From Treponemataceae bacterium (GTDB taxonomy: Bacteria > Spirochaetota > Spirochaetia > Treponematales > Rectinemataceae): 64,000 nt of DNA. Positions 35,647-63,994 of this stretch are shown piece by piece (position 1 is the stretch's first letter; every line of letters starts with the position of its first letter). The stretch is taken from NCBI GenBank assembly GCA_963678065.2, contig CAXXVZ010000004.1:224001-288000 (forward strand). Reading direction: 5' to 3'. The translations under genes were made by a program, and so were the position numbers. Below the pieces are notes generated by a model. It saw nothing but the letters and a program-made list of their open reading frames with translations. It was not told the DNA's origin and did no database searches.

Positions 35647-36282
35647 TCAGGCTGCGGCAAAAATGGATGCGACGACTTCGGCCGCGCTCGCGGCATCGGC
35701 CGTATAATAATCGGCTCCGATGGACTGACGGTAGGAGTCGGTGACGGGGGCTCCTCCGATCATGATCTTGATGCTGCCGCGGATCCCGGCTTCATCGGCC
35801 TTCTGGATTATGTTCTTCATCTCGGGCATGGTCGTGGTGAGGAGTGCCGAGCACATGATGATGGACGCGCCCTGCTCTTTCGCGGAGGTGATGAACCTGT
35901 CCGCCGGAACATCGGTGCCGAGATCCACGACCTCGACGCCGCGGCCTTCGACCATCATCCGGACGAGGTTCTTGCCGATGTCGTGGAGGTCGCCCTTGAC
36001 CGTGCCGATGACGACCTTGCCCTTGGCCTTGACACCCTCGGAGACGAGGAAGGGTTTGAGGATGGCCATTCCGCCGTTCATGGCGCGCGCGGCGATGAGG
36101 ACTTCGGGAACGAAGACCTCATTCTTCTTGAACTTCCCGCCGATGACCGTCATGCCGTTCATGAGGGCGTCGAGAATCTCGCCCGCGCCGATCTTTGCGT
36201 CGAGGGCGGACTGGACTCTTTCCTTGGTTTCCTTCAGCTTGCCAGCCTGCAGGAATGTGGAAATCTCTTCGAGTACGGACAT
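35647..36282 (-). CDS. Corrinoid (B12-binding) protein of a methyltransferase system
   Basis: Cap domain FVPEVL, then GDLHDIGKNLV, SALLTTT and GGAP motifs. GGGAGG RBS. Confidence 0.95.
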   Translation of the reverse strand: MSVLEEISTFLQAGKLKETKERVQSALDAKIGAGEILDALMNGMTVIGGKFKKNEVFVPEVLIAARAMNGGMAILKPFLVSEGVKAKGKVVIGTVKGDLHDIGKNLVRMMVEGRGVEVVDLGTDVPADRFITSAKEQGASIIMCSALLTTTMPEMKNIIQKADEAGIRGSIKIMIGGAPVTDSYRQSIGADYYTADAASAAEVVASIFAAA

Positions 36283-38347: not shown

Positions 38348-39721
38348 TTGCCGGTGAATCACGAGTCCTTCGCCCCGGACGGACTGTCCGCCGATCCCGC
38401 TCCGAACGAAACCGCAGCTCTCCTGGAAAAGACCGCCCGGACGTATGCCCTGGCGACAAACACACCCTGCCACGCCGTCGACCCCGACGGACGTTTTTTC
38501 GGCTCCGACTCGAAATCCATACGCTGCGGGCTCTGCATGGCGACTGGCCCCTCAGGCTGCGACGACGAGCGCCCCTCCTCATCCTGCGACGAGGTCCTGC
38601 GCTACGGAATTCTTCAGGCGGAACGATTCGGCGGCGCCTATCTCTCTTTCTGCCCGAACAGCCTTCTCATTACCACGGCCGTCGTGCGCAAGGAGGCCGA
38701 AATCGTGGGCGCCCTCATCGCGGGCCCCGCCCTCCTCGTCGACAAGGACGAGCTCATCAGCGAGGAATTCGCGCGGATACACGGAGAGCTCGCCCCGGGA
38801 ATGCCGGGCCTCATGGACCGGCTCGCGACCATGCCGAGCCTCGACACTCTGCGGGCCAAGGCCCTCGCGGACATGCTCGAGGCGGCGGCCAGGGACGCGG
38901 GCGCGGAGCTCGAAGGCCGGGTCGATCCCAGGATCGAGGCCTCGCGCCGGAACGCGCGGATAGCCGAGTACATCCAGAGCCTCAAGGCGGCGGGCCTCGA
39001 CTCCGGCGACGGGGAGGAGAATCTGCGCGGCTATCCCTTCGAGAAAGAGAGGGAACTGGTCGCCTTGGTCGCGCGGGGAGACAAGGCCGGAGCGCGGAAG
39101 GTTCTGAACGAAATTCTCGGCGCGGTGTTTTTCGAGGGAGGAGGCGCCCTGCAGGGCGTTCGAGCGAGGGCTCTCGAACTCGTCGTCCTCCTGTCGCGCG
39201 CCGCGGTGGAAGGAGGGGCGACGGCCCAGGAAGTATTCGGGGCGAGCGAGGACTTCATCAAGCGCACGGCGACGGCGCGGAGCGTCGAGGATCTCGCCTC
39301 CTGGCTCGCCGTCGTGCTCAACCGCTTCACCGACTTCGTCTTCACCCTGAAGAGGGCGAAGCACGCGGACACCATCCGCAAGGCGGAACGCTTCATCAAG
39401 GAGCGCTACCGCGAGGAACTCACGCTGGAGGATGTCGCGAAGGAAGTCGGGCTTTCGCCCTCGTACTTCAGCTCGGTCTTCAAGAACGAAGTCGGGACGG
39501 GCTTCGCCGCCTACCTGAACGAGGTCAGGATCTTCAAGTCGAAGGAGCTGCTCAAGAACCGGGCCATCCCCATCGTCGAGGCGGCGGGCATGGTCGGCTT
39601 CCTCGACCAGAGCTATTTCAGCCGGGTCTTCAAGTCGATAGTCGGGGTGTCGCCGGGCGCCTACCGGAACGGGCGCTTCGCCCCCGACTCCGGGATAGAG
39701 ATACACGGAGAGAACGCATGA
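38348..39721 (+). CDS. PocR-sensor/AraC-family regulator
   Basis: Cys-containing PocR-like N-terminus (CGLC..C..AERFGGAYLSFCP), YPFEKE, and AraC HTH GFLDQSYFSRVFK. Confidence 0.85.
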   Translation: MPVNHESFAPDGLSADPAPNETAALLEKTARTYALATNTPCHAVDPDGRFFGSDSKSIRCGLCMATGPSGCDDERPSSSCDEVLRYGILQAERFGGAYLSFCPNSLLITTAVVRKEAEIVGALIAGPALLVDKDELISEEFARIHGELAPGMPGLMDRLATMPSLDTLRAKALADMLEAAARDAGAELEGRVDPRIEASRRNARIAEYIQSLKAAGLDSGDGEENLRGYPFEKERELVALVARGDKAGARKVLNEILGAVFFEGGGALQGVRARALELVVLLSRAAVEGGATAQEVFGASEDFIKRTATARSVEDLASWLAVVLNRFTDFVFTLKRAKHADTIRKAERFIKERYREELTLEDVAKEVGLSPSYFSSVFKNEVGTGFAAYLNEVRIFKSKELLKNRAIPIVEAAGMVGFLDQSYFSRVFKSIVGVSPGAYRNGRFAPDSGIEIHGENA

Positions 39722-40842
39722 GACTGCACATCGTCGGAGGTTTCCTCGGCTCGGGCAAGACGACTGCCATCGCGCGGGCCGCGAAACTTCTGGCCGGGCG
39801 CGGACTGAAGGTCGGAGTCGTCACGAACGACCAGGGCAAGAGCCTCGTCGACACAATCTTCATGGACTCTGCGGGCGCGCCGAGGACGGAGGTGACGGGC
39901 GGATGCTTTTGCTGTCGCTACGAAGATTTCACGGACAGACTCGCCGCCTTCGCCGCAGAGGAGAGGCCCGACTGGATCTTCGCGGAGGCCGTGGGCTCCT
40001 GCGCCGACGTCGTCGCCACCGTCGTGCTGCCCATCGCGCAGGCCATCAGGGGAGCGAGCTTCGGGGCGCTGGGATTCACGGGCGCACCGACTTTTTCCGT
40101 GCTCTGCGACTCCCGCCTGCTGCAGCGCAGGCTCCTCGGCCAGCCCCTGCCCTTCTCGGAGGACCTCACATACCTCTTCGACAAGCAGATCGCCGAGGCT
40201 GGCCTCATCGTCGCGAACAAGTCCGACCTCGTCGCCGACAACCAGGCCTTCCGCACCCTCTTCGAGGAGAAGTTCCCTGGAAGGCCCTGGCGCATGCAGT
40301 CCGCGAAGTCCGACGCGGACATCCTGGGCTGGACGACCGCGCTGGATCAGGCGGGCGCGGAACTCGCCGGCAGGCCCGAGGAGGTCGACTACGAGCGCTA
40401 CGGGCGCGCCGAGGCCGGGCTCGCCTGGGCGGACTCGGAGATCCTCCTCGAATCCGCGCCGGAAAATCCGGGAGTCGAGCTCGGGGCGGCCTTCCGCAGC
40501 CTCTTTCTCGCCCTCGTGGCGCGGGTGAAGAAGGAAATCGGCCCGGCCGGCCACGCGAAGGCCTTCGCGGGCGACGCTCGCGCCGGCGGGAAAATCAGCA
40601 TCGTCTCCGCGGGGACCGACGAAGGCATCAGGATGGAATTGCCCGAGTTCCACGACTCTCTGCCTGTCCTCCTCAACCTCAGGATCGAGGGATCGCCAGA
40701 GCGGCTGGAAGCCGTCATGCGGGCAGGACTCGCGGAGCTCGGCGCAAAGCTCGGGATCGCCGTCACCATCCGCTCGATGAGTGTCTTCAGCCCCTCGCCT
40801 CCCCTGGTGCCGGCGCAGAGGGTCGGGCAAACAAAGGCGTGA
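39718..40842 (+). CDS. CobW/COG0523-like G3E GTPase (metallochaperone)
   Basis: GGFLGSGKTT, NDQG, GCFCC, EAVGSC and NKSD motifs. ATGA overlap with the upstream gene. Confidence 0.88.
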   Translation: MRLHIVGGFLGSGKTTAIARAAKLLAGRGLKVGVVTNDQGKSLVDTIFMDSAGAPRTEVTGGCFCCRYEDFTDRLAAFAAEERPDWIFAEAVGSCADVVATVVLPIAQAIRGASFGALGFTGAPTFSVLCDSRLLQRRLLGQPLPFSEDLTYLFDKQIAEAGLIVANKSDLVADNQAFRTLFEEKFPGRPWRMQSAKSDADILGWTTALDQAGAELAGRPEEVDYERYGRAEAGLAWADSEILLESAPENPGVELGAAFRSLFLALVARVKKEIGPAGHAKAFAGDARAGGKISIVSAGTDEGIRMELPEFHDSLPVLLNLRIEGSPERLEAVMRAGLAELGAKLGIAVTIRSMSVFSPSPPLVPAQRVGQTKA

Positions 40843-45820: not shown

Positions 45821-45830
45821 CTCGCGTTCC

Positions 45831-46801: not shown

Positions 46802-46868
46802 CGCTGTCCGGAATCGCCCCATGCTGCGGCGCCAAACAGGGACGTCGCGGCCATGATGGGCGCATCCT

Positions 46869-48443: not shown

Positions 48444-48641
48444 GTCCGAATCCTCCTTGGTGCCGTCCTTGGACGGTCCTTCGCGATTGTAGGGGCGCTT
48501 TTCCGAATCCCGGAAGAGACACATTTTTCGCTGCGACAGAATTTGATACTTTCGTGAATTCCCGCCGGAAACGGGCGATTTCGCCGAAACCGGCTTTTCG
48601 GGGCATTGACTCCGGGCGAAAAGCGAATTATAGGCAGCTGC

Positions 48642-50042: not shown

Positions 50043-50109
50043 CGAGGGTGGAGCTGATCAGAGAGGGAGTGATCGGCGGAGTCGGCCTCCCGCCTCGCCC
50101 CTCGCTGGA

Positions 50110-52452
50110 TCAGCCGAGGTCGCGGAATGCTGCGGGCGCCACTCCCTCATAGCGCTTGAAAGCCCTCGCCAGGGTGATCCGGCTCCCGCAGCCGACTTTC
50201 CCGGCGATTTCCTCGATGCTCAGTCTGCCTTCCCGTATGAGGGCCTCGGCCTCCCTGACACGGAGGATGTGGATGTAGTCCAGGAGTCCTACCCCGGCAT
50301 CCCTCTTGAAGGTGCGCGACAGATGGGGCAGGCTGACTCCGAAGCGATCGGCGATCGAGTTCACGCTGAGATTGCGGTCGCGGAAATTCTCCTCGACATA
50401 CCTGGCCACCGCGTCTTTCAGATTGACGGCGGGATCGGTCTTTCTTTCGCGGAAGTGCGATTCGAGCCTGATGAAAATTTCATCCACCTGCCGCTGCAGT
50501 TCAGGGATCGATTTCACGCGCGAGAGGCGGTCGACAGGATTCAGCTCCTCCATGAATCCCGGATTCAGGGAGGGACGGAGTTCGAACAGGATTTCCGACA
50601 CCATGTTCATCACGCCCGACATGCGCAATTTCGCCACCTGCAGGGACATTCCATTCTCCCCGGGCCCGCTCGCGAGGTAGCGGCGGACCTCGGTGGCCAC
50701 GGCGGGAAAGTCTTCGGCGTAGGCCCGTTCGGCGATCAGACGGTGGAGGGCGAGGCTTCCGCCGGGCGAGGTCACGGGACCCGTCATGTCGACGCTGTCG
50801 GCCAGGATGGTGACGTTCTTCTTCTCGAACAGGCCTATGGATTCGACGATCCTGTCGACTTCGGCGGCGGCGAGGGGCAAGGCCGAGAGGGTTTCGTAGA
50901 CGGCGCTCACGGCGAAGGAAAGCCCGATGTCGAACTTGTCGCGGAACAGGGCCCGGACTTTCACGGCGATCGTCACCATCTCGTCCATGGTCTCTTCCCA
51001 TCCCGGATCGGAGTCCTTCGTGACAGAAAGGTCGACCAGGCACATCGTCACGCCTTCGACATCCGTCGCGTAGGCGCGGTGGCGCTCCCCTGCGAGTTCC
51101 TCGAGAACACTCCGCAGCATGTACCCCACGAGGGCCACGGCGTCGGACTCTCCGGGCGGGCTCTGGCCCTCGATGGTCGCTCCCCTCTCATCGACGAGGA
51201 CCGCGATGAGGAGGAAATTTTCGGTGGGAAAAGCGATGCCGCATGCCGCGCAGGACTCGAGCAGGCTCGCCGTCTGGGAGGGGTGACTCCGGACAAGACG
51301 CGCGAGAAGGCTCCCGCGCACGGTCTCGTTCTGGCTGCGGATCGTCTCCTCGAGGTCCGCGTTTTCCTGGAGAAGCCGCTTGAGAGCCTCTTCCAGAAAG
51401 GGAAAATCCTTGCCGGCGCTCGTTTCGTCCCCGCCGAGCCGGTCGAGGAATATCTTCGTGAGGCGGCGGATCGGCGTATAGTTCTTCATCGCCATGAAAT
51501 ACGACAGCAGGAAACCGCCCGTGAGGCAGAAAATGACATAGCCCAGCATCACCCGCCTGATGAAGACGATGCTGCGCTTGTAGATGTCGGCGGGGATCAG
51601 GCTGACGTACCGGAGATCGGCCGCGTCGGAGCCTATTCCCGCCATGATATGGCGTTCCCCGCCGAGTCTCTTCTCGCGCATGCCGTACTGTTTCGACAGT
51701 GAACCGTATGCCAGCCAGGCCGGAGGGCTCGATCCGTCAGGGTCGCTGCGGAAGATGCCGTCGGGGGCCGAGATGACGAGCTTCGCGCGGCTGTTCCACC
51801 GCACCGTGTCCAGGAGTTCCGAAAGATTGCGGCCGTCGATCTTGATGGCCAGAACCGCGGGGACGCGGTCGATCCCCTCGAGGATGAATTTCTGCGTGAA
51901 CACGAACGAAGGGTTGACAGCCGGGCTTGAGGGCCGCAGCGCGAGGATGCGACGGTATCGTCCCGACCTGAGCATCGCTTCCCACTCCGACATCGGCATG
52001 CCGAAGCTCGTTCCCGCCGTCAGCTCGAATTCGTCCCCCTTGTAGCGGCTGACGTCCGAGAGCACATAGCCCGTTTTCGGAAGATACAGGTAGATGCCCT
52101 CGATGAAGGAATTGACCAGCTTGGCCTGCTGCAGAAGGTTCTGGACCTCCTTCATGGACATCCGCTGGAAGGGCGAGACCGGAGGGTTGGCGATCGCGAC
52201 GGATTGGACTTTCTCGTTGATCGAGAGCTGATCGGCCGTGATGAAGAGTTCCTTGAGTTTCGCATCGACGACTTGTCTCAGCAGCATCAGGGATGCCTTG
52301 TTGGCCTGCTCGGTCTCTTTCGCGATCATCGAGACGGAGGCGATGTAGATCATGAAGCTCACGGCGAGCGGCGCGAGGAAGAGAAGGGAGTAGGAGACCA
52401 GGAGATTGCGGAATGTCTGGAGTGTGAAGAGGAAAAAATTGCGCTTCTGCAT
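50110..52452 (-). CDS. Membrane-anchored AraC-family regulator with extracytoplasmic sensor domain (YesS-like)
   Basis: Two TM segments flanking a large sensor region, YTPI post-TM motif, and C-terminal AraC HTH. Confidence 0.85.
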   Translation of the reverse strand: MQKRNFFLFTLQTFRNLLVSYSLLFLAPLAVSFMIYIASVSMIAKETEQANKASLMLLRQVVDAKLKELFITADQLSINEKVQSVAIANPPVSPFQRMSMKEVQNLLQQAKLVNSFIEGIYLYLPKTGYVLSDVSRYKGDEFELTAGTSFGMPMSEWEAMLRSGRYRRILALRPSSPAVNPSFVFTQKFILEGIDRVPAVLAIKIDGRNLSELLDTVRWNSRAKLVISAPDGIFRSDPDGSSPPAWLAYGSLSKQYGMREKRLGGERHIMAGIGSDAADLRYVSLIPADIYKRSIVFIRRVMLGYVIFCLTGGFLLSYFMAMKNYTPIRRLTKIFLDRLGGDETSAGKDFPFLEEALKRLLQENADLEETIRSQNETVRGSLLARLVRSHPSQTASLLESCAACGIAFPTENFLLIAVLVDERGATIEGQSPPGESDAVALVGYMLRSVLEELAGERHRAYATDVEGVTMCLVDLSVTKDSDPGWEETMDEMVTIAVKVRALFRDKFDIGLSFAVSAVYETLSALPLAAAEVDRIVESIGLFEKKNVTILADSVDMTGPVTSPGGSLALHRLIAERAYAEDFPAVATEVRRYLASGPGENGMSLQVAKLRMSGVMNMVSEILFELRPSLNPGFMEELNPVDRLSRVKSIPELQRQVDEIFIRLESHFRERKTDPAVNLKDAVARYVEENFRDRNLSVNSIADRFGVSLPHLSRTFKRDAGVGLLDYIHILRVREAEALIREGRLSIEEIAGKVGCGSRITLARAFKRYEGVAPAAFRDLG

Positions 52453-52515: not shown

Positions 52516-52851
52516 TCACGCGGAGTCGACGCCGGCATCCGCGTCCCGGTCCGGAATCCCGATTCCCAGAAGCGCCGAAGCGAGGCTCTTGCCGTGCGCG
52601 TCGATCGCCAGGGATCGGGTCACGCCGCCGCCCAGCGCCTTCTTCATGACAAAATTCAGCGCGCCGAGTTTCGGAAGCTCGTAGCGGACAACCTCACCTT
52701 CGACGATCCCGGAGAACCACTTTCGGACTCTGTCTGCGGTGAGGAATTCCGCGATGCGGAGGTAGTCCGCCATGTCGAAGGCGATGACCGAGATGTTCGA
52801 AATGTCGCCCTTGTCGCCAGCCCTGGCGTGGGCGATTTCTCTGAGTATCAC
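52516..52851 (-). CDS. AtuA-associated small protein
   Basis: AHARAGDKGD, RYELP and LGGGVTRSL.IDAHGK motifs. GTGA overlap with the AtuA-family gene. Confidence 0.85.
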   Translation of the reverse strand: MILREIAHARAGDKGDISNISVIAFDMADYLRIAEFLTADRVRKWFSGIVEGEVVRYELPKLGALNFVMKKALGGGVTRSLAIDAHGKSLASALLGIGIPDRDADAGVDSA

Positions 52852-54236
52852 TTTGATCCCCTTCCCGCGCGGACTTCCCCGCAGTGCGCCGCGATCGCGA
52901 CATCATTCCTGTCGATGAAGATGGAGGCCACGGAGATAACGTCCCGCAGGTATTTCCGCGCGCCTCCTCCGCCCGACGGACCGTTCAGATAGAGCGCCTC
53001 GACCTCGTTGCCTATTCTTTCCGCGTCGCGCCTGTCCGCGGCCCGCGCAGCGACGCGGAGACGGACCTCGCAGGGTCCCCGGACCCCGCCGTCCGACCGG
53101 GCGCACAGGCGCTCTCCCAGTCGGTCCCCGTAGAGTGAGTCGACCCCCATATGCTCGATCCGCAGCTCCTCAAGCGGGATGCCGAGATGCTCAAGCCGCC
53201 TGCGCACGACGGAGCCGGCGAGCGCGGCGCGCTCCCGGGCTCCGGGCCCGCCGTAGCTGATCTCGCCCTCGCCGATGAAGCCGTCCGAGTAGCCGACGCT
53301 GACTTTCAATAGCCCGCTCCCCGCCTTCCCCGTCGCCCCCCGCACGCGGACCCTGTCCTTGCCGGCCTGATCGACCGTGACGCCCCTGTAGTCGGCGACA
53401 CCGTCCGGCGTGTGGTAGTTCGCAGGATCGTGGATCTCATAGATGATCTGCTCCTTGCAGGTGGCGGGAGAGACGAGTCCCCCGCTTCCCTCCAGCTTGG
53501 TGATGACGAAATCGCCGCTCTCGTCGACCTCCGCGATGGGAAATCCTACGTTCCAGAGCTCGGGCACTTCCTTCCAGCCCGGGTCCGCGAAGTATCCGCC
53601 CGTCACCTGGGAGGAGCATTCCAGCATGTGACCTGCCAGGATTCCTTTCCCGATCCGCTCATAGTCATCCGGATTCCAGCCGAATCCGTACATCAGCGGA
53701 GCGAGGAAGAGCGAGGGGTCGGCTATCCTGCCGCCTATGACTATGTCCGCCCCCTGGCGGAGCGCATCGACTATGCCCAAGGAGCCGATGTAGGCGTTTG
53801 CCGATATGATGCGGGAGGCGATACTCTCGAGCCTCTCGCCCGTCTCGAGGATTTCGTTCCCGAGATAGCGGTCTATCCTCCCAAGAACATCGTCTCCCGT
53901 GATGGCGGCGACCCGGAATCCTTCCATGCCCAGCCCGGCGGCCATCGCGCGCACGAGCCCGGCCGCGGCAAGGGGATTCGCCGCCCCCATGTTGGTGATG
54001 ACGCGGACCCTGCGATCGCGCAGAAGAGGGAGCATCCGCTCCATCCGATATTCCAGCAGTTCGTTGTAGCCGGTGGAGGGATCCTTCAGTTTCTGCCGCT
54101 GCGCCAGGGCGATCGTCCTCTCCGCGAGACATTCGAAGCCGATGTAATCGAGATCGCCCCTTTCGATAAGATCCAGGGCAGGCTCGATCCTGTCTCCGCC
54201 GTAGCCCGCGCCCGAACCGATTCTGAGTGTCTTCAC
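52848..54236 (-). CDS. AtuA/DUF1446-family protein
   Basis: GTG at 54236 after GAGGAG. RIGSGAGYGGDR, FECLAERT, GRIAD, GHMLEC and YEIHDP motifs. Confidence 0.9.
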   Translation of the reverse strand: MKTLRIGSGAGYGGDRIEPALDLIERGDLDYIGFECLAERTIALAQRQKLKDPSTGYNELLEYRMERMLPLLRDRRVRVITNMGAANPLAAAGLVRAMAAGLGMEGFRVAAITGDDVLGRIDRYLGNEILETGERLESIASRIISANAYIGSLGIVDALRQGADIVIGGRIADPSLFLAPLMYGFGWNPDDYERIGKGILAGHMLECSSQVTGGYFADPGWKEVPELWNVGFPIAEVDESGDFVITKLEGSGGLVSPATCKEQIIYEIHDPANYHTPDGVADYRGVTVDQAGKDRVRVRGATGKAGSGLLKVSVGYSDGFIGEGEISYGGPGARERAALAGSVVRRRLEHLGIPLEELRIEHMGVDSLYGDRLGERLCARSDGGVRGPCEVRLRVAARAADRRDAERIGNEVEALYLNGPSGGGGARKYLRDVISVASIFIDRNDVAIAAHCGEVRAGRGSK

Positions 54237-54280
54237 ACTGTCTCTCCTCGCGATATTTTCAGGGGAATTATCATATTCGT

Positions 54281-54323
54281 CCAATATATTTTTCTGATCA
54301 AACTAATATGTTTGAAGTATAAT
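54281..54323. promoter_or_regulatory. AT-rich divergent promoter with a probable LysR operator
   Basis: TCAAAC-N6-GTTTGA (54298-54315) and TATAAT between the divergent AtuA-family and LysR genes. Confidence 0.45.
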
Positions 54324-54373
54324 TTGAAGAATCTTCCGACAGACTGTCGCGGGATCGGAGATGGAGGCAGAGA

Positions 54374-55258
54374 ATGGAACTCAGGCATTGCAGGTATTTC
54401 ATCGCCGTGGCCGAAGAGCTGAGCTTCACAAAGGCCGCCGGCCGCCTCGGCATATCCCAGCCGCCGCTCAGCCAGCAGATCCGGAGTCTGGAAGAGGAAA
54501 TCGGGGTGCCGCTCTTTGTCCGGACCAAGCGCTCGGTGAGACTGACGGAGGCAGGGCGTCATTTTCTCGAGAAAGCATACCGAATACTCGGGGAGACGGA
54601 TCGAGCCGTGCAGGCGGCCAGGAGGGCGTCCCGGGGCGAGATCGGCGATCTGACGGTAGGCTTCGTCGCCTCCGCCGCCTTCGATTTTCTGCCGAGGGTC
54701 GTCGCGCAGTTCATGGCCCGGTACCCCGACGCGAAGCTGGAGTTGCGCGATCTTACAACGGTCGAACAGCTCCGGGATCTGGCGGAGGGCAGGATCGAAC
54801 TCGGCCTGATGAGGCCGCCGGTGGACGATCCGGAACTCCGGCAGGAACCCGTGATCCGGGAAGAGTTCGTGGCTGTCCTGCCTTCGAACCATCGGCTGGG
54901 ATCGCTCGCGTCGGTCGATCTCCGCTCTCTGGCCGAAGAATCCTTCATAATGGTTCCGGGCCGGGTGGCGCCCGGGCTGCGCTCCCAGACGGAACGTATA
55001 TGCCGCTTTGCGGGATTCGAGCCGCGAGTGCGTCTCGAGGTGGGGCAGCTCGATCTGGCGGTGAGCTTCGCGGCGGCGGGATTCGGCGTGGCCCTGCTGC
55101 CCGCTTCCATAGCCCTGTTCCGGCACGCGGGTGTCCTCTTCCGCCCGCTTGCAGGCCTCGCGGAGCGGGCGGAAATCGTGGCGGTATGGAAGCCCGGGGA
55201 GGAGTCCCCTACCCTGGTCAACTTCATGGAGATGGCGAGGTCCGCGGCGAAGCTCTGA
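54374..55258 (+). CDS. LysR-family transcriptional regulator
   Basis: MELRH.RYFIAVAEELSFTKAA..LGISQPPLSQQIR..LTEAG. Confidence 0.95.
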   Translation: MELRHCRYFIAVAEELSFTKAAGRLGISQPPLSQQIRSLEEEIGVPLFVRTKRSVRLTEAGRHFLEKAYRILGETDRAVQAARRASRGEIGDLTVGFVASAAFDFLPRVVAQFMARYPDAKLELRDLTTVEQLRDLAEGRIELGLMRPPVDDPELRQEPVIREEFVAVLPSNHRLGSLASVDLRSLAEESFIMVPGRVAPGLRSQTERICRFAGFEPRVRLEVGQLDLAVSFAAAGFGVALLPASIALFRHAGVLFRPLAGLAERAEIVAVWKPGEESPTLVNFMEMARSAAKL

Positions 55259-55323
55259 TTCGCAGGCGGGTCCATACCCCTCAGGATGTCGGAAAAATCG
55301 CTTTCAAGCCCCCGGAGGCGCCG

Positions 55324-55998
55324 CTAAAGGCAGGCTATCGGCGCGAGCTCCGGCAAACTGGCTTCGTAGCGGGTTTCAAGAAGATAGCGGGCGAGGTCGA
55401 AGACGGGCGCGCGGGCCCTGCACACGATGCCGGAATCCGATGTGGCGATGGCATCCCCCTCCCACGACGCGACGGGGCCATCCGCGCTGTGCACGAGGAA
55501 CACCTCGCCCTCGATTCCGCGGGCGGCGAGGAGCCCCCTCAGGGCGAGAGCGTGGGACGCGCTCCGGGAGACGGGTTCGTCGATATAGATGGCGGCGTAG
55601 GCGACGGCGAGCCGGGCAAGAGTCTCGCAGAGCCGGCTGGCCACATCGAGGAACTGGGACGAGTCCGCCACGCGTCCGTGGGCTCCGCCCGCGTCGCGGA
55701 GAAAGCCGTCGGTTGAGATGAACAGGGGATGTCCGCGCAGATAGTTCATCACGGTGAAAAGAACGTTGTAGCCGTCGATTGCGATGCGCGATCCGGCCGG
55801 CAATGTGGAGACGAGGCGCGTGGCGTTCCGGACAGAGACATCGCCCGGCATGATCCCGCGGAAAAGAACCATGCGCTCGGTCTTGCCCAGACGGTACCGA
55901 TCGCCGACGAGCTTGAGACTCGCCGCGAGGGGGTAGCCTCTGTCGAGGAGAAGGCGGTAGTCGCGCGCCGCCCGCACGAAATCTTCGGAAAACATCAT
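55324..55998 (-). CDS. DUF434-family protein (PIN-like fold)
   Basis: LLDRGYP..LKLVGDRY, IDGYNV, DGFLRD and TSDS motifs. Confidence 0.8.
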   Translation of the reverse strand: MMFSEDFVRAARDYRLLLDRGYPLAASLKLVGDRYRLGKTERMVLFRGIMPGDVSVRNATRLVSTLPAGSRIAIDGYNVLFTVMNYLRGHPLFISTDGFLRDAGGAHGRVADSSQFLDVASRLCETLARLAVAYAAIYIDEPVSRSASHALALRGLLAARGIEGEVFLVHSADGPVASWEGDAIATSDSGIVCRARAPVFDLARYLLETRYEASLPELAPIACL

Positions 55999-56021: not shown

Positions 56022-56063
56022 AAAAAGGGGACTGCCGAGGAATTGCTTCCCCGGCAGTCCCCC
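56022..56063 (-). terminator. Rho-independent terminator of the rhaM-URO-D-ABC operon
   Basis: GGGGACTGCCG...CGGCAGTCCCC stem followed by TTTTT on the minus strand. Confidence 0.8.
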
Positions 56064-56090: not shown

Positions 56091-57287
56091 TCACCACTGG
56101 GGAGGATAGAAGGTGGCGACGTCCTTGGCGGTGATGATGTGCTGGGGCAGGTTGCGGCGGACCTCGACGGCCAGGCCGTTGAACCAGTCGGAGGCGGTCT
56201 TCACGGCGAGGGCGCCGTCGCCTTCGGCGGTCTGGTAGGTGATGGCGAAGAGCCTTCCGTCCTTGACCTGGTCCATGCCGATCTTGGAGTTGCCGGCGGC
56301 CACGACGACGACGTCCGAGCGTCCGGCCTTCTTGAGGGCCTCGGCGATGCCGAGGGCCTGGGCGGAGTCATCGGCGGCGAAGACGCCCTTCAGCTTGGGA
56401 CCGAAGCGGGTGAGCCAGTCGGAGACGAGCTGCATGGTCTTGTCGGCTTCGAAGCCGGGAGCCTGCTTGTCGAGGGTCTTGATCTCGGGGGCGTAGGTGG
56501 CCAGCTCGGAGATGGGGCCGAAGCAGCGGGCGAAGTAGGGCGAGCCGCCGGGGGCGTGCTGGACGTAGGCGACGCCGATTTCCGCGGCGCCGGGGTTGCG
56601 GCGGCGGAGCTCGTCGGCGAATACCCTGGAGAGGAGGCGCATCTGGCCGAAATCATCCGGGCCGGTCCAGGCGATGGCGTAGTTCATGGCCTCGGCTTCG
56701 GGGAGGGTGTTGAAGAGGATGAGGGGAATGCCGGCCTGGTTGATCTTGCGCGCCTGCTGGGGAGCGGTCTTGGCGTCGAGCGGGATGAGGAGGATCATGT
56801 CGGGCCTCTCGTTGATGGCCTGATCGATCATCTGGTTCTGGACCGCGAGGTCCCAGTTCGGAGAGAGGGCCTTGAAGCTCATCTTGTAGGCGTCGGCGAC
56901 TTTCTTGGCGCCCAGGGTGCAGGCCGTGGTCCAGGGATGGTCGCCGTGGACGATGAAGATCACTTTCTTCCCGATGGCGCCGTCGGCGGGGGACTTGGGA
57001 ATGTTCACTTTCTTGGTGTTCCAGCCGGCCCACTCCATGTCGTACCAGTGCATGGGATCGGTTTCGGGCAGGGAATCGGCGTTGGCGGGACGGACGGGAA
57101 CCTTGCGGTTGTCCGTGGAAGCCTTGAGAAGGGACTGGGTGTCGGCGGCCTTGAGCACGCTCGTGTCGACCTTGAGGGAAGCTGCGAGATTGGCTTTCTG
57201 GGCCGCACTGAGATTCTGCGCGAATCCCGTGGCCGCGACGACCATCATGAGGGCGATGGCGGCGAGGGCGATGAGAGATTTCTTCAT
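56091..57287 (-). CDS. Monosaccharide ABC transporter substrate-binding protein (RbsB-like) with N-terminal extension
   Basis: Signal peptide, HPWT, QNQMID and AADD...ALG motifs. GGAGG RBS. Confidence 0.88.
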   Translation of the reverse strand: MKKSLIALAAIALMMVVAATGFAQNLSAAQKANLAASLKVDTSVLKAADTQSLLKASTDNRKVPVRPANADSLPETDPMHWYDMEWAGWNTKKVNIPKSPADGAIGKKVIFIVHGDHPWTTACTLGAKKVADAYKMSFKALSPNWDLAVQNQMIDQAINERPDMILLIPLDAKTAPQQARKINQAGIPLILFNTLPEAEAMNYAIAWTGPDDFGQMRLLSRVFADELRRRNPGAAEIGVAYVQHAPGGSPYFARCFGPISELATYAPEIKTLDKQAPGFEADKTMQLVSDWLTRFGPKLKGVFAADDSAQALGIAEALKKAGRSDVVVVAAGNSKIGMDQVKDGRLFAITYQTAEGDGALAVKTASDWFNGLAVEVRRNLPQHIITAKDVATFYPPQW

Positions 57288-57416
57288 CCGAATGCCTCCT
57301 GGAAAAGTGATGTTCCTCCCGGTATCACACCCGACGGGCGATCCGGTTATGGAATCCGAACGGTATCGCGGGTCCTGCGGAGAGGTGGATACCCACCCAC
57401 CCGCGAAAATCCGCGT

Positions 57417-58436
57417 TCAGGCCCTCGGCCGCGTCTCCAGCTCCTTCATGAGCTGGGGTCTGCGTCCGAGGGTCCGCTCGTGCTTGTAGAGGACATAGGC
57501 CTCGTAGAGCACGACGAGGGCGAGGATGAGTCCCGCGAAGAATATCTTCACCTCGTTTCCGAGGCCGAAGAGAATGATCCCTGTGTACAGCATTTCGAGA
57601 GAGAGGATGGCCACGACGGTCTTGAGCACGCCGCCCTTGCCCCCCGCCATCGAAGTGCCGCCGATTATGGTCGCGGAGATGACGTACATGAGGGACTGGT
57701 CGCCGAGCTTCAGGGTGGCGGCGCTCGATTCCATCGCGAAGAATATCCCGCCGATCGCGGCCATCGCTCCTGAGAGAACGAAGGCTCCGATCGTGTAGTT
57801 GTCGGTCTTGATGCCGGCGAGCCAGGCTGTGTTCCTGTTTCCTCCGACGAGGTAGAAATTGCGGCCGGTCCGCGTCTTTCGGAGGAATACCTCGGCGAGA
57901 ATCACGAACAGGGCCGTTATGAGCACGCGGGGGGTCACGAGGGGGAGGAGCATCTTCGCGAGGAAGTCCGAGACCGCGAAGGCGTCCTCGGAGGAGAGGC
58001 TCACGGAGTTGCCCCCCGTGAACTGGTAGATGGCGCCCTGGAGAATCGTCATCGTGCCGAGGGTGACGATGAAGGAATTGATTTTCGCCTTGGCCACGAG
58101 AAGGCCATTCACGAGACCGACCAAGGCGCCTGCCGCGATCGCGAGGGGGACAGAGCCGAAGTAGCCGAGTTGCTCCTTCATGCCGAGGCCGATGACGCCC
58201 GCGAAGGTGATGACCGTGCCGATCGAGAGGTCGAGCTGGCCGCAGATCATGACGATCGTGAATCCGATCGCGACGCAGGCGTTCATGCCCACCGAGCGCA
58301 TGATGGTGGTCAGGTTGAATACGTTGAAGAACTTCGGAGCGAAGAGCGACATGAACGCGAAGACCGCGATGAAGAGGATGAAGATCCTGTACTTGTCTCC
58401 CCAGGAGAGGAGTTTGCTTTTGTCTATTTTACGCAT
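57417..58436 (-). CDS. Monosaccharide ABC transporter permease (RbsC-like)
   Basis: DLSIG, FIVTLG, VGGN and IIGGTSMAGGKG motifs. Confidence 0.92.
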   Translation of the reverse strand: MRKIDKSKLLSWGDKYRIFILFIAVFAFMSLFAPKFFNVFNLTTIMRSVGMNACVAIGFTIVMICGQLDLSIGTVITFAGVIGLGMKEQLGYFGSVPLAIAAGALVGLVNGLLVAKAKINSFIVTLGTMTILQGAIYQFTGGNSVSLSSEDAFAVSDFLAKMLLPLVTPRVLITALFVILAEVFLRKTRTGRNFYLVGGNRNTAWLAGIKTDNYTIGAFVLSGAMAAIGGIFFAMESSAATLKLGDQSLMYVISATIIGGTSMAGGKGGVLKTVVAILSLEMLYTGIILFGLGNEVKIFFAGLILALVVLYEAYVLYKHERTLGRRPQLMKELETRPRA

Positions 58437-59580
58437 CGTCGCGCCCCAGGCTTCGCAAGGATTTGGCATTGATTCCGACGACGATGATGAAGATGGCGCC
58501 GCGTATCATGTCCTGTGAGAATGTCCCGATACCGAGAAGGGTCATGATGTTGTTCATCATGCCGATGACGAGGGCGCCGCCGAGGACGCCTACGATGGAG
58601 CCGCGGCCGCCCGCGAGGGTCATGCCGCCGATGACGATGGCGGTGACCGCCTTGAAGTCGTAGCCAGCGCCGTTGTACCAGGCTCCGACGCGTCCGAGCG
58701 AGGTCACCGTGAGTCCGCCTATCGTCGCCGCGAAGGCGGAGATGACGAAGGCCGCGCCTATGATCCTCTCGACGTTGATGCCCGAATATTTGGCCGTCCG
58801 TTTGGCCGAGCCCGTCAGCTTGAGGCGCGCGCCGAAGACGGTCTTTCCGAGCACGAATTGTCCCGCGACGACCATGGCGACGAGCATGATGACGGGGAGA
58901 CCGACGATGTCGAATAACCTGTAGCGGAAAATGCCGTCGAACATCCTGTTGGTCCACTCGCTCGCGCCCGTCATGTCGGGGTAGATCTGCTTGTTGACCC
59001 AGACGAGGCGGATTACGCCCATGGTCACGTAGTTCATCGCGAGGGTCCAGATGATGGGGTTCGCGCCGAACTTGCCTACGACGAGGCCGTTCACGAGACC
59101 GATGAAGAGGCCGACCGCGAGGGCGAGGGCTATGGCGGGCCAGAAGCCGTATTTCAGCATCTGGATGCAGACGATGCCGGTGAGGGCCATCGTCGTCGGG
59201 ACGGACATGTCGGAGAAGTTGCCCGAATACGTGACGAAGGCGATGCCGACGGCGACGATGCCGAGCATGGCCACTGCGTCGACGATGTTCATCATGTTCT
59301 GTGCGGACAGGAATCCCCGGATAACGCCCGTCGCCTGGAGAACACCGCCCAGCGCGAGGAAGAGGATCGCGATGCCGTATATGCCGGCCGTGCTGACGAT
59401 CCTTCCCATGCGGTTCGAACCCGTGGAGCGCAGATCCACTGCGCCCGGGGCCGCCGCGCCGGCCGGCGCGGCCTTCGCCTTTGCCGGCGCGGCCTTTGTC
59501 TTCGCCTTTGCCGGCGCGGCCTTTGTCTTCGCCTTCGCCGCCCTGCCCCGCGAGGCACCAGAGGAGGTTTTTGCAGCCAT
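58429..59580 (-). CDS. Monosaccharide ABC transporter permease with Lys/Ala-rich N-terminal tail
   Basis: TGATG coupling at 59580. IIWTLA and VIGGMTLAGGRG motifs. Confidence 0.9.
   Translation of the reverse strand: MAAKTSSGASRGRAAKAKTKAAPAKAKTKAAPAKAKAAPAGAAAPGAVDLRSTGSNRMGRIVSTAGIYGIAILFLALGGVLQATGVIRGFLSAQNMMNIVDAVAMLGIVAVGIAFVTYSGNFSDMSVPTTMALTGIVCIQMLKYGFWPAIALALAVGLFIGLVNGLVVGKFGANPIIWTLAMNYVTMGVIRLVWVNKQIYPDMTGASEWTNRMFDGIFRYRLFDIVGLPVIMLVAMVVAGQFVLGKTVFGARLKLTGSAKRTAKYSGINVERIIGAAFVISAFAATIGGLTVTSLGRVGAWYNGAGYDFKAVTAIVIGGMTLAGGRGSIVGVLGGALVIGMMNNIMTLLGIGTFSQDMIRGAIFIIVVGINAKSLRSLGRDDA
59462..59535 (-). repeat. 27-bp tandem repeat encoding KAKTKAAPA
   Basis: CTTCGCCTTTGCCGGCGCGGCCTTTGT at 59473 and 59500, with partial flanking copies. 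Confidence 0.9.
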
Positions 59581-61085
59581 CACCTGCCCCCTTCGCCGTT
59601 GGCCGCGAGCAGAACCGATTCCTCGGAGCACTCTTCGTACTTCATCTCGCGGGTGAACCTTCCGTTGCACATGATCATGACCCTGTCGGAGAGGCCGACG
59701 AGTTCGGGCAGATCCGAAGAGATGAGGATGACCGAGGTTCCGGCCCGCGCGAGCTTTTCGATCGACTGGTGGATGATCATCTTGGCGCCGATGTCGACGC
59801 CGCGGGTCGGTTCGTCCAGAATGAGAACCTTGGGTGAACTCGCGAGCCACTTCGCGAGGAGTACCTTCTGCTGGTTGCCGCCCGAGAGGTTGCCGACGGT
59901 CCGCGAAGGATCGGGCGGGTAGATGGCGAGTTCCTTTATGAGCGAGTCGACCGTGGTCCCACCCGCGCGCTTCGAGTAGACGGAGAATTTCGAGAGGCGG
60001 TGGATAATGGGCGAAAGAATGTTGTCGTCGACGGCGAGCCTGAGGGCGAGCCCTTCGACCTTGCGGTCCTCGGTAAGGTAGGCGATGCCCTCGTCGACGC
60101 GCGAGGCCATCGAGCGGCCTTTTACCCGCTTTCCATCCAGCTCGACCGCGCCTTCGTCGGCCCGGTCGAGGCCGACGAGTACGCGGGCCAGCTCCGAGCG
60201 GCCGGCTCCCGACAGGCCGCAGATACCCATGATTTCGCCGCGCCTGACCTCGAAGCTGACATCGTGGAAGAAGCCGTAGCGCGTCAGCTTCGCGACCTTG
60301 AAGCGGGATGGACCGATGGCGCGCTTGTCGCGGTTGTAGAATTCCTTGACAGAGCGGCCGACCATCATCTGGACGATCTCTTCCCGCGTGACTTCGACGA
60401 TCTCCTTCGTGGCTACCTTCTTTCCGTCGCGCATCACCGTGACGCGGTCGGCTATCCTGAAGATCTCCGGAAGATGGTGCGAAATGAAAACGATGGCGAG
60501 ACCCCGCTTCCTGAGAGTGTCGATGATTCCGAATAACCTCTCGACTTCCTCGCGGGAGAGCGCGCTCGTGGGTTCGTCCATGACGAGAATGCAGGGTTTC
60601 GTTCCGAGGACCTTCGCGATTTCGACGAGCTGGGCCTCGTGCTGGCTGATGTCCTCTATGGGAAGTCCCGGGTCGAGTTCGAGGCCGACCGAAGCGAGGA
60701 GACGTCTGGCCTCGGCATCGGCGGCCGCGCGGTCGAGAAGCCCGCGTTTTTTCGGAAGCCTGCCTGCGAGAAGATTCTCAGTGATGCTGATGGGCCTCGC
60801 GAGACTCAGCTCCTGGTAGATCATTCCGATGCCGTATTTTCGGGCCTCGGAGGGAGAGTGCAGGAGAACCTTCTTGTCGTTGATGAAGATGTCTCCGGTG
60901 TAGTCGTCGAATGATCCGGCGAGCATCTTCATGAGGGTCGATTTGCCCGCCCCGTTTTCCCCGACGAGGGCGTGCACTTCGCCCGCGTAAACCTGGAAGG
61001 TGACGTTGTCGACGGCTATCGTTCCCGGATAGCGTTTGCCGACTCCTTTCATCTCCAGCGCGACCCCTATCTCGTGTTCGCTCAC
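59580..61085 (-). CDS. Monosaccharide ABC transporter ATP-binding protein (RbsA-like, two ATPase domains)
   Basis: GTGA overlap at 61085. GENGAGKST, MDEPT, LSGGNQQK and LDEPTRG motifs. Confidence 0.95.
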   Translation of the reverse strand: MSEHEIGVALEMKGVGKRYPGTIAVDNVTFQVYAGEVHALVGENGAGKSTLMKMLAGSFDDYTGDIFINDKKVLLHSPSEARKYGIGMIYQELSLARPISITENLLAGRLPKKRGLLDRAAADAEARRLLASVGLELDPGLPIEDISQHEAQLVEIAKVLGTKPCILVMDEPTSALSREEVERLFGIIDTLRKRGLAIVFISHHLPEIFRIADRVTVMRDGKKVATKEIVEVTREEIVQMMVGRSVKEFYNRDKRAIGPSRFKVAKLTRYGFFHDVSFEVRRGEIMGICGLSGAGRSELARVLVGLDRADEGAVELDGKRVKGRSMASRVDEGIAYLTEDRKVEGLALRLAVDDNILSPIIHRLSKFSVYSKRAGGTTVDSLIKELAIYPPDPSRTVGNLSGGNQQKVLLAKWLASSPKVLILDEPTRGVDIGAKMIIHQSIEKLARAGTSVILISSDLPELVGLSDRVMIMCNGRFTREMKYEECSEESVLLAANGEGGR

Positions 61086-62329
61086 TTCGCGCTCCCGTTG
61101 AATTGTGCGATCGCATCGTACATCGCGATGATGTTGGCGGGCGGGACATCGGGCAGGATGTTGTGGACCGTGTTGAACACGAATCCGCCGCCGGCCGAGA
61201 ATATTTCGAGCCTGCGCTTCACCTGCTCCGCGACCTGCGCGGGTGAGCCTGAATTGAGCACCTCGCGCGTGTCGACGCCGCCGCCCCAGAAACAGATATC
61301 TTTCCCGAATTCTTTTTTGAGTTTTTCCGGCCCCATGTCCTTCGCGTTCGTCTGGACCGGATTGAGAATGTCGTAGCCCACATCGATGAGGTCGGGCATG
61401 AGGCTGTAGAGCGATCCGCATGAATGAAGGAAGGTCTTCATGGAGCTGTGCTTCTTCACGTAGGCCACGAGTTCGGCGTGACGGGGCTTGAAGAGGCTCC
61501 GGTAGGTATCCGGGTTCATGAAGGGCCCCCCGTCGTGGCCGAGATCGTCCCCGAAGCGGATGATGTCGGCCACGTCGCCGACGGCCTCGCAGACCTTCTC
61601 CAGAGTCGCGAGGTGGCTCTCCATGAGGGCGTCCAGAAGCCGACCGACCTCTTCGGGCTCGCACAGGAGGTCCATGAGGAAATTGTCGATGCGCCGGAGG
61701 AAGGTCCCCCACTCGAAGAGGTTGCAGCCGGCGACGATCACGAGGGCGCGGTCGGACTTCGCCTTGAGCGCGAGCGCACGGGCGCGGAGATCCGCCCAGA
61801 AGTCATCGGCGGCGGCGTGATTCCAGGGCGAGTGCACGAGGGCGGACCAGAGAACCGCGCCCATCGCCTCTGGCAGGCCGGAATACTCGGCGGGATAGCC
61901 TTCCAGGTATGGAAAGCAGCGCTGGTCGTAGAAGGTCGCGCCCGCAGGCCGCTCGGCGATGAGCCGGCCAGAGCGATCGCAGGCGTAGAAGGAATCGCCG
62001 CGCCGCACCGGCTTGAACCAGGCCGGGTACTGCACCTTCCAGCCGCCGGGAAGCTCGATGTCGCTCCAGTCCGAGGGACTTTCGTCGAAGGCGCGCCCTA
62101 TGTCGACCACATCCACGCCGAAGCGGCCTAAGGCCCAGTCGTCGGGCTGGGCGAGTTCCTGCACGACGTCGTAGACTTTCACGGGCAGGTCGGAGTGTCC
62201 CAACTCGGCCGCGAGGCGCGAATAGGCGATCGCCGAGATGCCGGAGCTCGGCGTGGCTCCGAGGTCGACCGGAACTTTGTCCGGCTCCCGGTGCTCCACG
62301 GCCGAGAGGATGCGTTCGCGGGAAGTCAT
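61082..62329 (-). CDS. URO-D/MtaA-family cobamide methyltransferase
   Basis: MTSRER..PDKVPVD, FGDDLG, HSCG, NPVQ, FWGGGVDT and NTVHNI motifs. Confidence 0.88.
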   Translation of the reverse strand: MTSRERILSAVEHREPDKVPVDLGATPSSGISAIAYSRLAAELGHSDLPVKVYDVVQELAQPDDWALGRFGVDVVDIGRAFDESPSDWSDIELPGGWKVQYPAWFKPVRRGDSFYACDRSGRLIAERPAGATFYDQRCFPYLEGYPAEYSGLPEAMGAVLWSALVHSPWNHAAADDFWADLRARALALKAKSDRALVIVAGCNLFEWGTFLRRIDNFLMDLLCEPEEVGRLLDALMESHLATLEKVCEAVGDVADIIRFGDDLGHDGGPFMNPDTYRSLFKPRHAELVAYVKKHSSMKTFLHSCGSLYSLMPDLIDVGYDILNPVQTNAKDMGPEKLKKEFGKDICFWGGGVDTREVLNSGSPAQVAEQVKRRLEIFSAGGGFVFNTVHNILPDVPPANIIAMYDAIAQFNGSAK

Positions 62330-63612
62330 CAGGCTTTGCCCACCTGGCCGGCATCGACGACATCACCGGCGGCGCCCGATGCATCGCCGGACGGACCGCC
62401 CGCGGCGAAGGCCCCGCGCCCGGCCGATTTTCCGGCGCGGAACAGGTCCATCTCGGGCATGTCGTACTCGCCGAGCTCGAGAGGATATTTTCCGTATTTC
62501 TTCACGAGATCGACGACGAAGCCGTAGCGCTCGGCCGAGACATTGCTCGGCACCGAGTGGTCGGACTGCACGATGTAGCCGCCGCCCTTGGCCGCGTTGA
62601 GCTTTCGCATAACCTGGGCTTTCAGCTCGTCCAGGGAGGCGTTCGCCCAGGCGAGAGCGTCGATATTGCCGCAGAAACCCATCTCGTGGCCGTACTGCTT
62701 GCGGATTTCGACGACATCGAGGCCGGACTTGGCCTCCAGGGGATTGTAGGCGTCGAGGCCTATCTCGATGAAATCGTCGTAGATCATAGTCGCGTTGCCG
62801 CAGCCGTGGTAGATGACGGGGATGCCTGCATCGTGGCAGACTCTGATCTGCTCCTTCACGATGGGCTTGAAATGCTCGCGCCAGAATACCGGCGAAAAGA
62901 GCATGCCGTTGCGGTAGGCCACGTCGCCCCAGATGACCATGCCGTCGAGCATGCCGTCCGCGGCCTTTATCTGGGCCTTCGTCATCTCGGCGAGGAAGCT
63001 GCCGACCCTCTCTATGAAGGCGCCCAGCTCATCGGGATACAGGCCCATCCACATGAAGGTGTTCTCGCTGCCGATGATGCGCCAGAGCTGCTCGTGACCC
63101 TCGCAGATCGAGCCGTAGACGGGGAAATCGGGATGAATGCTCTTGACGGTGTCGATCCAGGCGGGGGAATTGCGGGTGATGACGTCGCCCACGCCGGCGA
63201 GCTGGTTGTCGCCGGCACAGAAGTAGCGCCTGTCGTCCCAGGGATCGTCGAACTGGAAGGCCTCCATCTTCTCGATCGAGTCCGTGCCGAAGGACTCGAA
63301 GTAGGGCATCTGCGTGCCGAGCTTCTTGCGGATGACGGCCTCGTACCCGGTCCTGAGGATGATGTCGTCCTCGTGCTCGGAGAGGATTTCGAAGGGTTTG
63401 ATGTGCGGGTCCATGTTCGGGGTCGTGGATACCCAGTCGAGGTCGTAGTAGCGGTAGACGTCCACGTCGTCCGCGAGCCCGAGCTCCTTTCTCCATCGCT
63501 GGATGAAGGTCGTCCAGAAAAAATCGCTCACGGGAACCCTGTCCGCCTCTTCGTGGCGCAGGGTCGCGTTCATCCTTTCGAGCTTCTGCAGGCACTTCTC
63601 GGTTCTCTTCAT
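62329..63612 (-). CDS. URO-D/MtaA-family cobamide methyltransferase
   Basis: DRVP, WGDVAY, YHGCG, NPLEAK, CGNID and QSDHSVP motifs. TGATG coupling to the next gene. Confidence 0.88.
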   Translation of the reverse strand: MKRTEKCLQKLERMNATLRHEEADRVPVSDFFWTTFIQRWRKELGLADDVDVYRYYDLDWVSTTPNMDPHIKPFEILSEHEDDIILRTGYEAVIRKKLGTQMPYFESFGTDSIEKMEAFQFDDPWDDRRYFCAGDNQLAGVGDVITRNSPAWIDTVKSIHPDFPVYGSICEGHEQLWRIIGSENTFMWMGLYPDELGAFIERVGSFLAEMTKAQIKAADGMLDGMVIWGDVAYRNGMLFSPVFWREHFKPIVKEQIRVCHDAGIPVIYHGCGNATMIYDDFIEIGLDAYNPLEAKSGLDVVEIRKQYGHEMGFCGNIDALAWANASLDELKAQVMRKLNAAKGGGYIVQSDHSVPSNVSAERYGFVVDLVKKYGKYPLELGEYDMPEMDLFRAGKSAGRGAFAAGGPSGDASGAAGDVVDAGQVGKA

Positions 63613-63670
63613 CGCGTTTCGTCCTTATTCTTCGCCATTCTTCGCCGCACGCGCGTTCATCCCCGCGCGC

Positions 63671-63994
63671 TCAGTCCTGGTGAAAGACTTCTTCCATGGT
63701 GGACCACCATTCGCCCTCGGCCCTGTTCGCGACAGGCTCCTGCATCGGCATCATGATGTCCCACCATTCCTGTGTTTTTTTGTCGGCGGCCATTCTGGCC
63801 ATATCGGCGGCGAAATCGCTGCCCGTGTACTCGAAATACGCGAAGAGCGTGCCGTCTTTGTGGTATATGGAATAATTTTTGATATTGCAGGCGCTGATCA
63901 TGGCGGCGACCTCGGGCCACACCGAAGCGTGAAATTTCTTGTATTTCTCCAGTACACCGGGCTTTATACCAATTATCTGACCGTAGCGAACCAT
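63671..63994 (-). CDS. rhaM: L-rhamnose mutarotase-family protein
   Basis: YKKFHASVWPEV, NYSIY, LFAYFEY, TQEWW and MEEVFH motifs. Confidence 0.9.
   Translation of the reverse strand: MVRYGQIIGIKPGVLEKYKKFHASVWPEVAAMISACNIKNYSIYHKDGTLFAYFEYTGSDFAADMARMAADKKTQEWWDIMMPMQEPVANRAEGEWWSTMEEVFHQD

Follow-up and report, generated by a model that had tools for sequence, protein, structure and literature searches.

What is the function of a bacterial operon that joins a sugar mutarotase, two proteins of the uroporphyrinogen decarboxylase (UroD) superfamily and a sugar ATP-binding cassette (ABC) transporter? The operon lies at 56091..63994 of a 64 000-nucleotide stretch of DNA from a Treponemataceae bacterium (C4:224001-288000 of the 5.27-Mb genome), referred to hereafter as the window, whose closest homologues carry spirochaete names. 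A preliminary description of the window, made from the letters and their open reading frames, suggested that the operon imports an O-methylated or methyl-glycosidic rhamnose-like sugar, demethylates it onto a corrinoid protein and passes the free sugar to RhaM, RhaA and an aldolase. We think it somewhat probable that the operon serves corrinoid-dependent O-demethylation of methylated L-fucose, or of a sugar of like configuration, and that the methyl group is oxidized via folate to formate. Demethylation of a fucose-type sugar is favoured because of the match of the mutarotase, the presence of a true RhaM elsewhere in the genome, the FucI and GH29 neighbours of related genes, the co-occurrence of the corrinoid activase RACo and a folate methyltransferase, and a modelled complex.

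Organization of the operon

The preliminary description had read a co-directional run of seven genes, and this was confirmed: all seven are intact, lie on the minus strand and agree with their Pfam families. The first (63671..63994) encodes a RhaM-family mutarotase of 107 residues (PF05336), of the L-fucose-mutarotase type (FucM). Two UroD-superfamily proteins, assigned from Pfam and fold matches, follow: protein A (62329..63612; 427 residues, HGCG at 269-272), a predicted methyl donor:corrinoid methyltransferase, and protein B (61082..62329; 415 residues, HSCG at 302-305), a predicted second methyltransferase. The transporter consists of a monosaccharide ABC ATPase (59580..61085), which resembles AraG, XylG and RbsA but falls under the equivalog cut-off of each, two permeases of the BPD_transp_2 family (58429..59580 and 57417..58436) and a periplasmic sugar-binding protein (56091..57287; Peripla_BP_4). 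Solved relatives of the binding protein are all distant, and its best PDB match (E = 2e-20) is too remote to name a ligand.

Stop and start codons overlap, as claimed, at four of the six junctions (by 1, 4, 1 and 8 nt), and gaps of 58 and 129 nt separate the genes at the other two. The terminator was also found, as a 17-bp hairpin and a T run at 56022..56063 on the minus strand. Its 96-nt region folds with a z-score of -5.4, and 0 of 200 shuffled sequences were equally stable; a simple terminator scan did not have the hairpin at 56022-56063 among its sites.

The mutarotase and related loci point to a fucose-type sugar

By sequence, the mutarotase is of the L-fucose type, with the 7byu type as its closest characterized relative. 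It matched the L-fucose mutarotase 7byu/7byw, its best PDB match, over its full length (E = 1e-32, 115.7 bits), compared with E values of 1e-7 to 4e-4 (best 35.2 bits) for four rhamnose mutarotase entries and 3e-7 for Escherichia coli YiiL. The earlier label 'rhaM' was correct for the family and incorrect for the L-rhamnose mutarotase equivalog, against which the protein scored 47.9 bits (TIGR02625, cut-off 99.6). FucI and the RhaM-fold mutarotase may also accept D-arabinose or L-galactose, and we therefore use 'fucose type' as the safe wording. We take 7byu to be the structure from the 2020 fucose mutarotase paper. Fucose catabolic pathways are outlined, with citation of that 2020 paper, in the available part of PMC11199699.

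A true RhaM (122.5 bits with TIGR02625) is encoded at C5:632220, where its neighbours are another URO-D gene and a RhaS-like ABC system. The binding protein of the operon did not match RhaS (TIGR02637) at E 0.001. The genome encodes FucI at C4:313352, 25 kb past the window end, and a FucU-family protein at C4:316866. Within the window, a RhaD-like aldolase and RhaA (20336-22762) have neither a kinase nor a mutarotase adjoining. With a fucose-type mutarotase in the operon and the true RhaM at a separate locus, rhamnose as the sugar was not upheld.

Relatives of A were encoded at 573 loci, and neighbourhoods were compared at the best 80 of these (59-81% identity; genes counted by tblastn), which by their records belong to Spirochaetota, Chloroflexota, Acidobacteriota, Ignavibacteria, Bacteroidota, Aminicenantes and others. 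A fucose-type mutarotase was present in 61 of the 80 (58 under a stricter length rule) and in 55 of the 67 with room upstream, being directly upstream in 51. B was found in 31-32 loci, an orthologue of the binding protein in 28, and FucI-family genes in 11, five of them true FucI-like and six belonging to a divergent Chloroflexota type that comes with an FGGY kinase. There were creatininase-family amidohydrolases in six loci, GH29 in four, GH95-like genes in two and RhaA in one. By chance a single-copy gene is expected about 0.2 times across the 80 loci, related genomes among them not being independent. The proposed hand-over to RhaM and RhaA was likewise not supported, as the neighbourhoods of A favour FucI-family and GH29 genes over RhaA.

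In a 401-genome sample from the order of a Bacteroidetes carrier, A occurred in seven genomes and B in 11. Twelve Bacteroidales B loci included GH29 in four, a mutarotase in three, sulfatases in two and a corrinoid protein in one; one locus has the order RhaT-family transporter, B, three GH29 genes, mutarotase, A. Three side observations were made at these loci. In Chloroflexota (L057:5450-7168 and five more), the divergent FucI-family isomerase, whose substrate may be a different sugar or one that still has its methyl group, and its FGGY kinase are sometimes followed by Pfam-silent proteins. Next to A, two acidobacterial loci encode a short-chain dehydrogenase/reductase (SDR) with matches to numerous SDRs. 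At L187:9945-12351 in Bacteroidales, a B orthologue, a corrinoid protein, an MtaA-like URO-D protein and a MetH activation-domain protein stand in a row.

A and B are UroD-superfamily proteins with a His-Cys-His site

A and B scored 80.0 and 77.7 bits with PF01208 (cut-off 23.9), which places them in the UroD superfamily, and homologue searches put each in a very large, conserved family. The sequence of A had no match in the PDB. The predicted models of A and B (predicted local distance difference test, pLDDT, 83 and 92) matched UroD and MtaA at 13-20% identity. For A these matches had Z-scores of 25.6-27.9, the next family reaching 16, and UroD was the best; for B the top match was MtaA (4ay7; E = 7.9e-14, 17% identity). 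HemE identity was ruled out with TIGR01464 (23.0 and 24.5 bits; cut-off 302.95), and so was MtaA/CmuA membership with TIGR01463 (27.6 and 45.6 bits; cut-off 235.4), both proteins falling short of the MtaA model by a wide margin. A profile of B weakly matched CdmB (E = 0.0099), which is related to the methyltransferase I proteins of aryl ether O-demethylase systems.

Residues H269, C271, E293, D351 and H352 of A were invariant among 30 homologues, and H302, C304 and H389 were invariant in B. H302-x-C304 of B aligns with the H-x-C of MtaA and H389 with its last cysteine; H269, C271 and H352 are the equivalents in A. The site is not the His-Cys-Cys zinc site of MtaA-type S-methyltransferases, as H-x-C is kept but the third position is His (H352, H389). 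The accessible part of PMC10418091 gives His-Cys-Cys for S-methyltransferases and, for O-methyltransferases, replacement of one or both cysteines by carboxylates or non-ligands. The O-demethylases MtvB, OdmB, VdmB and MtoB belong to the UroD superfamily, according to the part of PMC13222342 at hand.

A probable link of A and B to a corrinoid and methyl-folate system

A free corrinoid protein with DxHxxG at D98, the predicted methyl carrier (35647..36282, minus strand), and RACo, the sole corrinoid reductive activase found in the genome (36463..38325, plus strand), lie about 23-25 kb from A and B. The PocR-AraC regulator and CobW-family GTPase of this corrinoid module (38354..40842, plus strand) have the same neighbours in relatives. 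A candidate methyl-folate oxidation module at C4:68964-74218 consists of a pterin-binding methyltransferase, a short methylenetetrahydrofolate reductase (MTHFR), EtfB, EtfA and a PocR-AraC regulator. The genome also has Fhs and FolD; acetyl-CoA synthase (ACS) was searched for there and not found. With a DxHxxG corrinoid protein, RACo and a pterin-binding methyltransferase II, the genome holds these three components of a corrinoid O-demethylase system. Besides a full MetH, it also encodes a stand-alone MetH N-terminal half with homocysteine and pterin domains (C5:489743-491596), which may be another acceptor of methyl groups.

RACo was found in 48 of 50 genomes with A, as compared with 1 of 14 control genomes; this test used 50 of the 80 A loci, mostly the longer ones, and three genomes were common to the test sets. 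Among 60 relatives, all nine with A had RACo, as did nine of the 51 without A. The corresponding figures were 5/5 and 45/146 in a 151-genome class sample around a Terriglobia (acidobacterial) carrier. A close orthologue (63-66%) of the folate methyltransferase was present in six of nine relatives with A and in one of 51 without it (one partial match).

The genes also cluster. RACo was no more than 20 kb from A in six of the eight A-carrying relatives examined. In one of these genomes (G005) the order is binding protein, permeases, ATPase, B, A, mutarotase, LacI, U, DUF1638, RACo, PocR, methyltransferase and corrinoid protein. Two others resemble it, G024 adding MTHFR-EtfAB and G032 adding FucI; in all three the corrinoid protein and the folate methyltransferase are in one block with A and RACo.

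When the corrinoid protein was modelled with residues 1-390 of A, the complex scored 0.88, and the best of three controls 0.00. The mark used for such scores was reached by 116 of 157 solved pairs and by 2 of 215 mismatched pairs. The runs shared at least 95% of contacts, the pLDDT of the partners was at least 93, and the interface included carrier residues 97-100, among them D98-H100, and residues 233-240, 272, 295-296 and 355-357 of A. The model supports a putative binding of the corrinoid protein by A. Co-occurrence, clustering in relatives and the modelled complex are indirect evidence that A and B are linked to a corrinoid methyl-transfer system; a link to deoxy-sugar catabolism likewise has indirect support. 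The earlier name 'cobamide methyltransferases' is a prediction, as neither protein comes near the MtaA/CmuA cut-off or has the third cysteine.

Genes past the window end and protein U

A divergent LacI-family gene, a gene for a protein that we call U and a DUF1638 gene were found beyond position 64000, where the preliminary description had pointed. The regulator (L001:133-1239, plus strand) is part of the system, and a LacI match of at least 40% was present in 19 of the 80 A loci. Also part of the system is a pair of divergent sigma-70-like promoters that flank a candidate palindromic LacI operator (L001:27-105, equivalent to C4:288027-288105). A promoter scan of this region gave four sites, as compared with 1.5 +/- 1.2 in shuffled sequences. 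In a count made without a shuffled control, 24 intergenic regions of this kind, including two duplicates, had the candidate operator. The DUF1638 protein (L001:3414-4178, minus strand) is probably part of the system and adjoins RACo in relatives. A PEMT-like membrane protein encoded between U and DUF1638 (L001:2795-3379) was seen at none of the 80 related loci.

Protein U (L001:1317-2615, plus strand; 432 residues, with a YYGCCE motif) belongs to the system and occurs in 24 of the 80 A loci. It is Pfam-silent, without a match to the UroD superfamily; 13 of 112 homologues match that superfamily weakly, and atlas values were 0.97-0.98. Its HHalign comparison with B gave 0.6% and later 54%, and shallow and deep profiles of U matched nothing meaningful in the PDB. 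The family is large, with 699 representatives at 50% identity scoring E 1e-30 or better. Taken together, these profile comparisons suggest that U is probably a very distant member of the UroD superfamily or fold.

A proposed pathway

From the gene content, predicted folds, conserved residues, co-occurrence and clustering observed, we infer the following chemical steps. The ABC system would import an O-methylated fucose-type sugar, of which the mutarotase would supply or clear the right anomer. A, B and probably U would each act on a different position or sugar, with the substrate at the His-Cys-His metal site, and would pass the methyl group from the sugar to the cob(I)amide of the corrinoid protein (35647-36282), which RACo (36463-38325) would keep reduced. 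The next acceptor would be tetrahydrofolate, charged by the pterin-binding methyltransferase, and oxidation of the methyl group to formate would be the work of MTHFR with EtfAB, FolD and Fhs. The freed fucose would be taken up by FucI, a kinase and an aldolase.

Several observations weigh against this pathway. As regards the corrinoid link, RACo was missing from two of the 50 A genomes, its background reached 31% in the acidobacterial sample, and kin are not independent across the counts. Of the 80 loci, only one had RACo, and only one a free corrinoid protein, at 10 kb or less from A. The three controls of the modelled complex included no UroD-fold non-methyltransferase such as HemE, and its score may reflect likeness to barrel-corrinoid complexes that have already been solved. 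The His-Cys-His site fits neither of the rules published in the part of PMC10418091 cited above, and a histidine stands at the equivalent of the third-ligand place in HemE also. As regards the sugar, the mutarotase was missing from 12 of the 67 A loci with room for it, and A lacks nearby sugar genes in several Bacteroidales and Ignavibacteria. Per genome, FucI (40/50) and RhaA (36/50) do not separate the two sugars in A carriers, and FucI was also present in 11 of 21 relatives without A.

Some of these points bear on other explanations. The chemistry might be the same and the sugar an O-methyl-rhamnose or another sugar not of the fucose type, which we consider unlikely. RhaA and a RhaD-like aldolase do lie inside the window, RhaA was present in 47 of 66 A genomes, RhaM-RhaA-RhaD adjoin the operon in one relative (L137), and RhaT-family transporters occur in three of the 12 Bacteroidales B loci; these last two findings also count against the fucose assignment. 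The type of the mutarotase, the scarcity of RhaA beside A (1/80, FucI family 11/80), the binding protein without a RhaS match and the separate RhaM/RhaS-like locus with its own URO-D gene all argue against rhamnose. The methyl donor, too, could differ. Transfer to the corrinoid from a methyl glycoside, from an S- or N-methylated sugar or from methanol freed from glycans, with one of A, B and U perhaps being a methyl-accepting enzyme, would fit the two soft ligands (His and Cys) kept in A and B, the thiol methyltransferase MtaA as the closest structure to B, and the amidohydrolases of the creatininase family at six of the 80 loci. We regard such a donor as improbable, given that the third cysteine of S-methyltransferases is replaced in A and B, that a separate folate methyltransferase travels with the cluster, and that the presence of GH29 fucosidases and a mutarotase speaks for a reducing sugar in free form.

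A further explanation is that A and B are corrinoid-independent metalloenzymes of sugar catabolism (epimerase, dehydratase, decarboxylase or hydrolase) built on the UroD barrel, and that the corrinoid module co-occurs on account of other paralogues or of lifestyle. The superfamily includes non-methyltransferases, UroD being the best structural match of A; the genome has 36 URO-D matches for two free corrinoid proteins; and corrinoid genes seldom adjoin A outside the relatives. Yet among relatives the presence of RACo and the folate methyltransferase follows that of A, near which they also cluster, the modelled complex passes, its cobalamin-binding loop lying at the mouth of the barrel, and candidates for FucI, FucU, kinase and aldolase already cover plain fucose catabolism, so that this explanation, too, seems to us a poor bet.

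Comparison with known systems

Corrinoid-dependent O-demethylation of a fucose-type sugar would have its nearest parallel in the aryl methyl ether O-demethylases (MtvABC, Odm/Vdm, MtoABCD), as described in the available parts of PMC8630106 and PMC13222342. Four parts are alike, namely a UroD-superfamily methyltransferase I, a corrinoid protein, a reductive activase and a pterin-binding methyltransferase II, and so are the paired methyltransferase I paralogues and the adjoining transporter and regulator. The known enzymes act on an aromatic ether, whereas the substrate predicted here, in a comparison of gene architecture, is an alkyl sugar ether; the partners in the operon also differ, being a mutarotase, a sugar ABC importer, FucI and GH29.

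MtaA-type S-methyltransferases and type 1 mlp clusters share with the operon the fold, the H-x-C motif and the presence of several UroD paralogues for one corrinoid protein and RACo. Structural identity is 16-17%, however, the third ligand is His and not Cys, and the scores are far under TIGR01463; a folate methyltransferase travels with the cluster, and the context is sugar, not sulfur or selenium. The locus is not a type 1 mlp cluster, in which the corrinoid protein and activase are co-directional within 2 kb: the distance is about 23-25 kb here and 7-25 kb in four relatives. The L-fucose mutarotase 7byu/7byw is alike over its full length, and the copy in the operon differs in standing ahead of a UroD-fold gene.

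The cytochrome P450 demethylases of 6-O-methyl-D-galactose do the same job, removing a methyl ether from a monosaccharide before its catabolism, and in the accessible part of PMC6292453 they are the only sugar demethylases that we found in print. These are monooxygenases for one sugar, whereas oxygen-free cobamide chemistry on fucose-type sugars is predicted for the operon. No description of corrinoid-dependent sugar demethylation was found in the literature searched, which comprised largely non-subscription papers, main texts and the leading matches of broad queries.

The wider genome

Breakdown of methylated sugars in the gut is hindered, and in sea water these sugars build up; 2-O-methyl-fucose is a component of rhamnogalacturonan-II (PMC12168206, in the part available). 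If the pathway is as proposed, concrete proteins can be named for anaerobic sugar demethylation, large families now labelled 'uroporphyrinogen decarboxylase' gain a function, glycan methyl groups are used by a non-acetogenic fermenter, and regioselective, oxygen-free demethylation catalysts are on offer.

Seven of the 32 URO-D matches of the genome that are callable as genes share His-Cys-His, and a solute transporter or sugar enzyme, as judged by eye, is close by in 16 of 23 other URO-D regions. Many of these proteins could share a single carrier and a single activase. A bolder proposal, to which we give some credence while leaning against it, is that A, B and U define new families of sugar O-demethylases that depend on cobamide and occur across many anaerobic phyla, and that much of the URO-D set is a library of such enzymes, in which every member has an importer next to it and the corrinoid protein, activase and folate branch are common to all. 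This would be a general anaerobic route for the methylated sugars of glycans, with a second, rhamnose-directed copy at C5:632220-640593.

In the region C5:632220-640593, a candidate rhamnose-directed counterpart of the operon, the true RhaM and the RhaS-like sugar ABC system are joined by a DeoR-sugar-binding regulator and a URO-D protein whose motif is HSDG. At C2:333692-344439, a GH29 fucosidase is encoded in one run with two URO-D genes, a U paralogue of 44-48% identity, a GHL6 protein and an ABC system. Between the corrinoid module and the operon (40925-52452 of the window) lie a GH3 glycosidase, two esterases, an oligosaccharide ABC system, an acyl-CoA ligase and an AraC regulator, followed at 52516-55998 by an AtuA-family gene pair with a LysR regulator and then a DUF434/DUF5616 gene directly after the terminator. 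Near cobalamin synthesis genes, a URO-D match at C4:426704-427601 is split in two, with an internal TAA.

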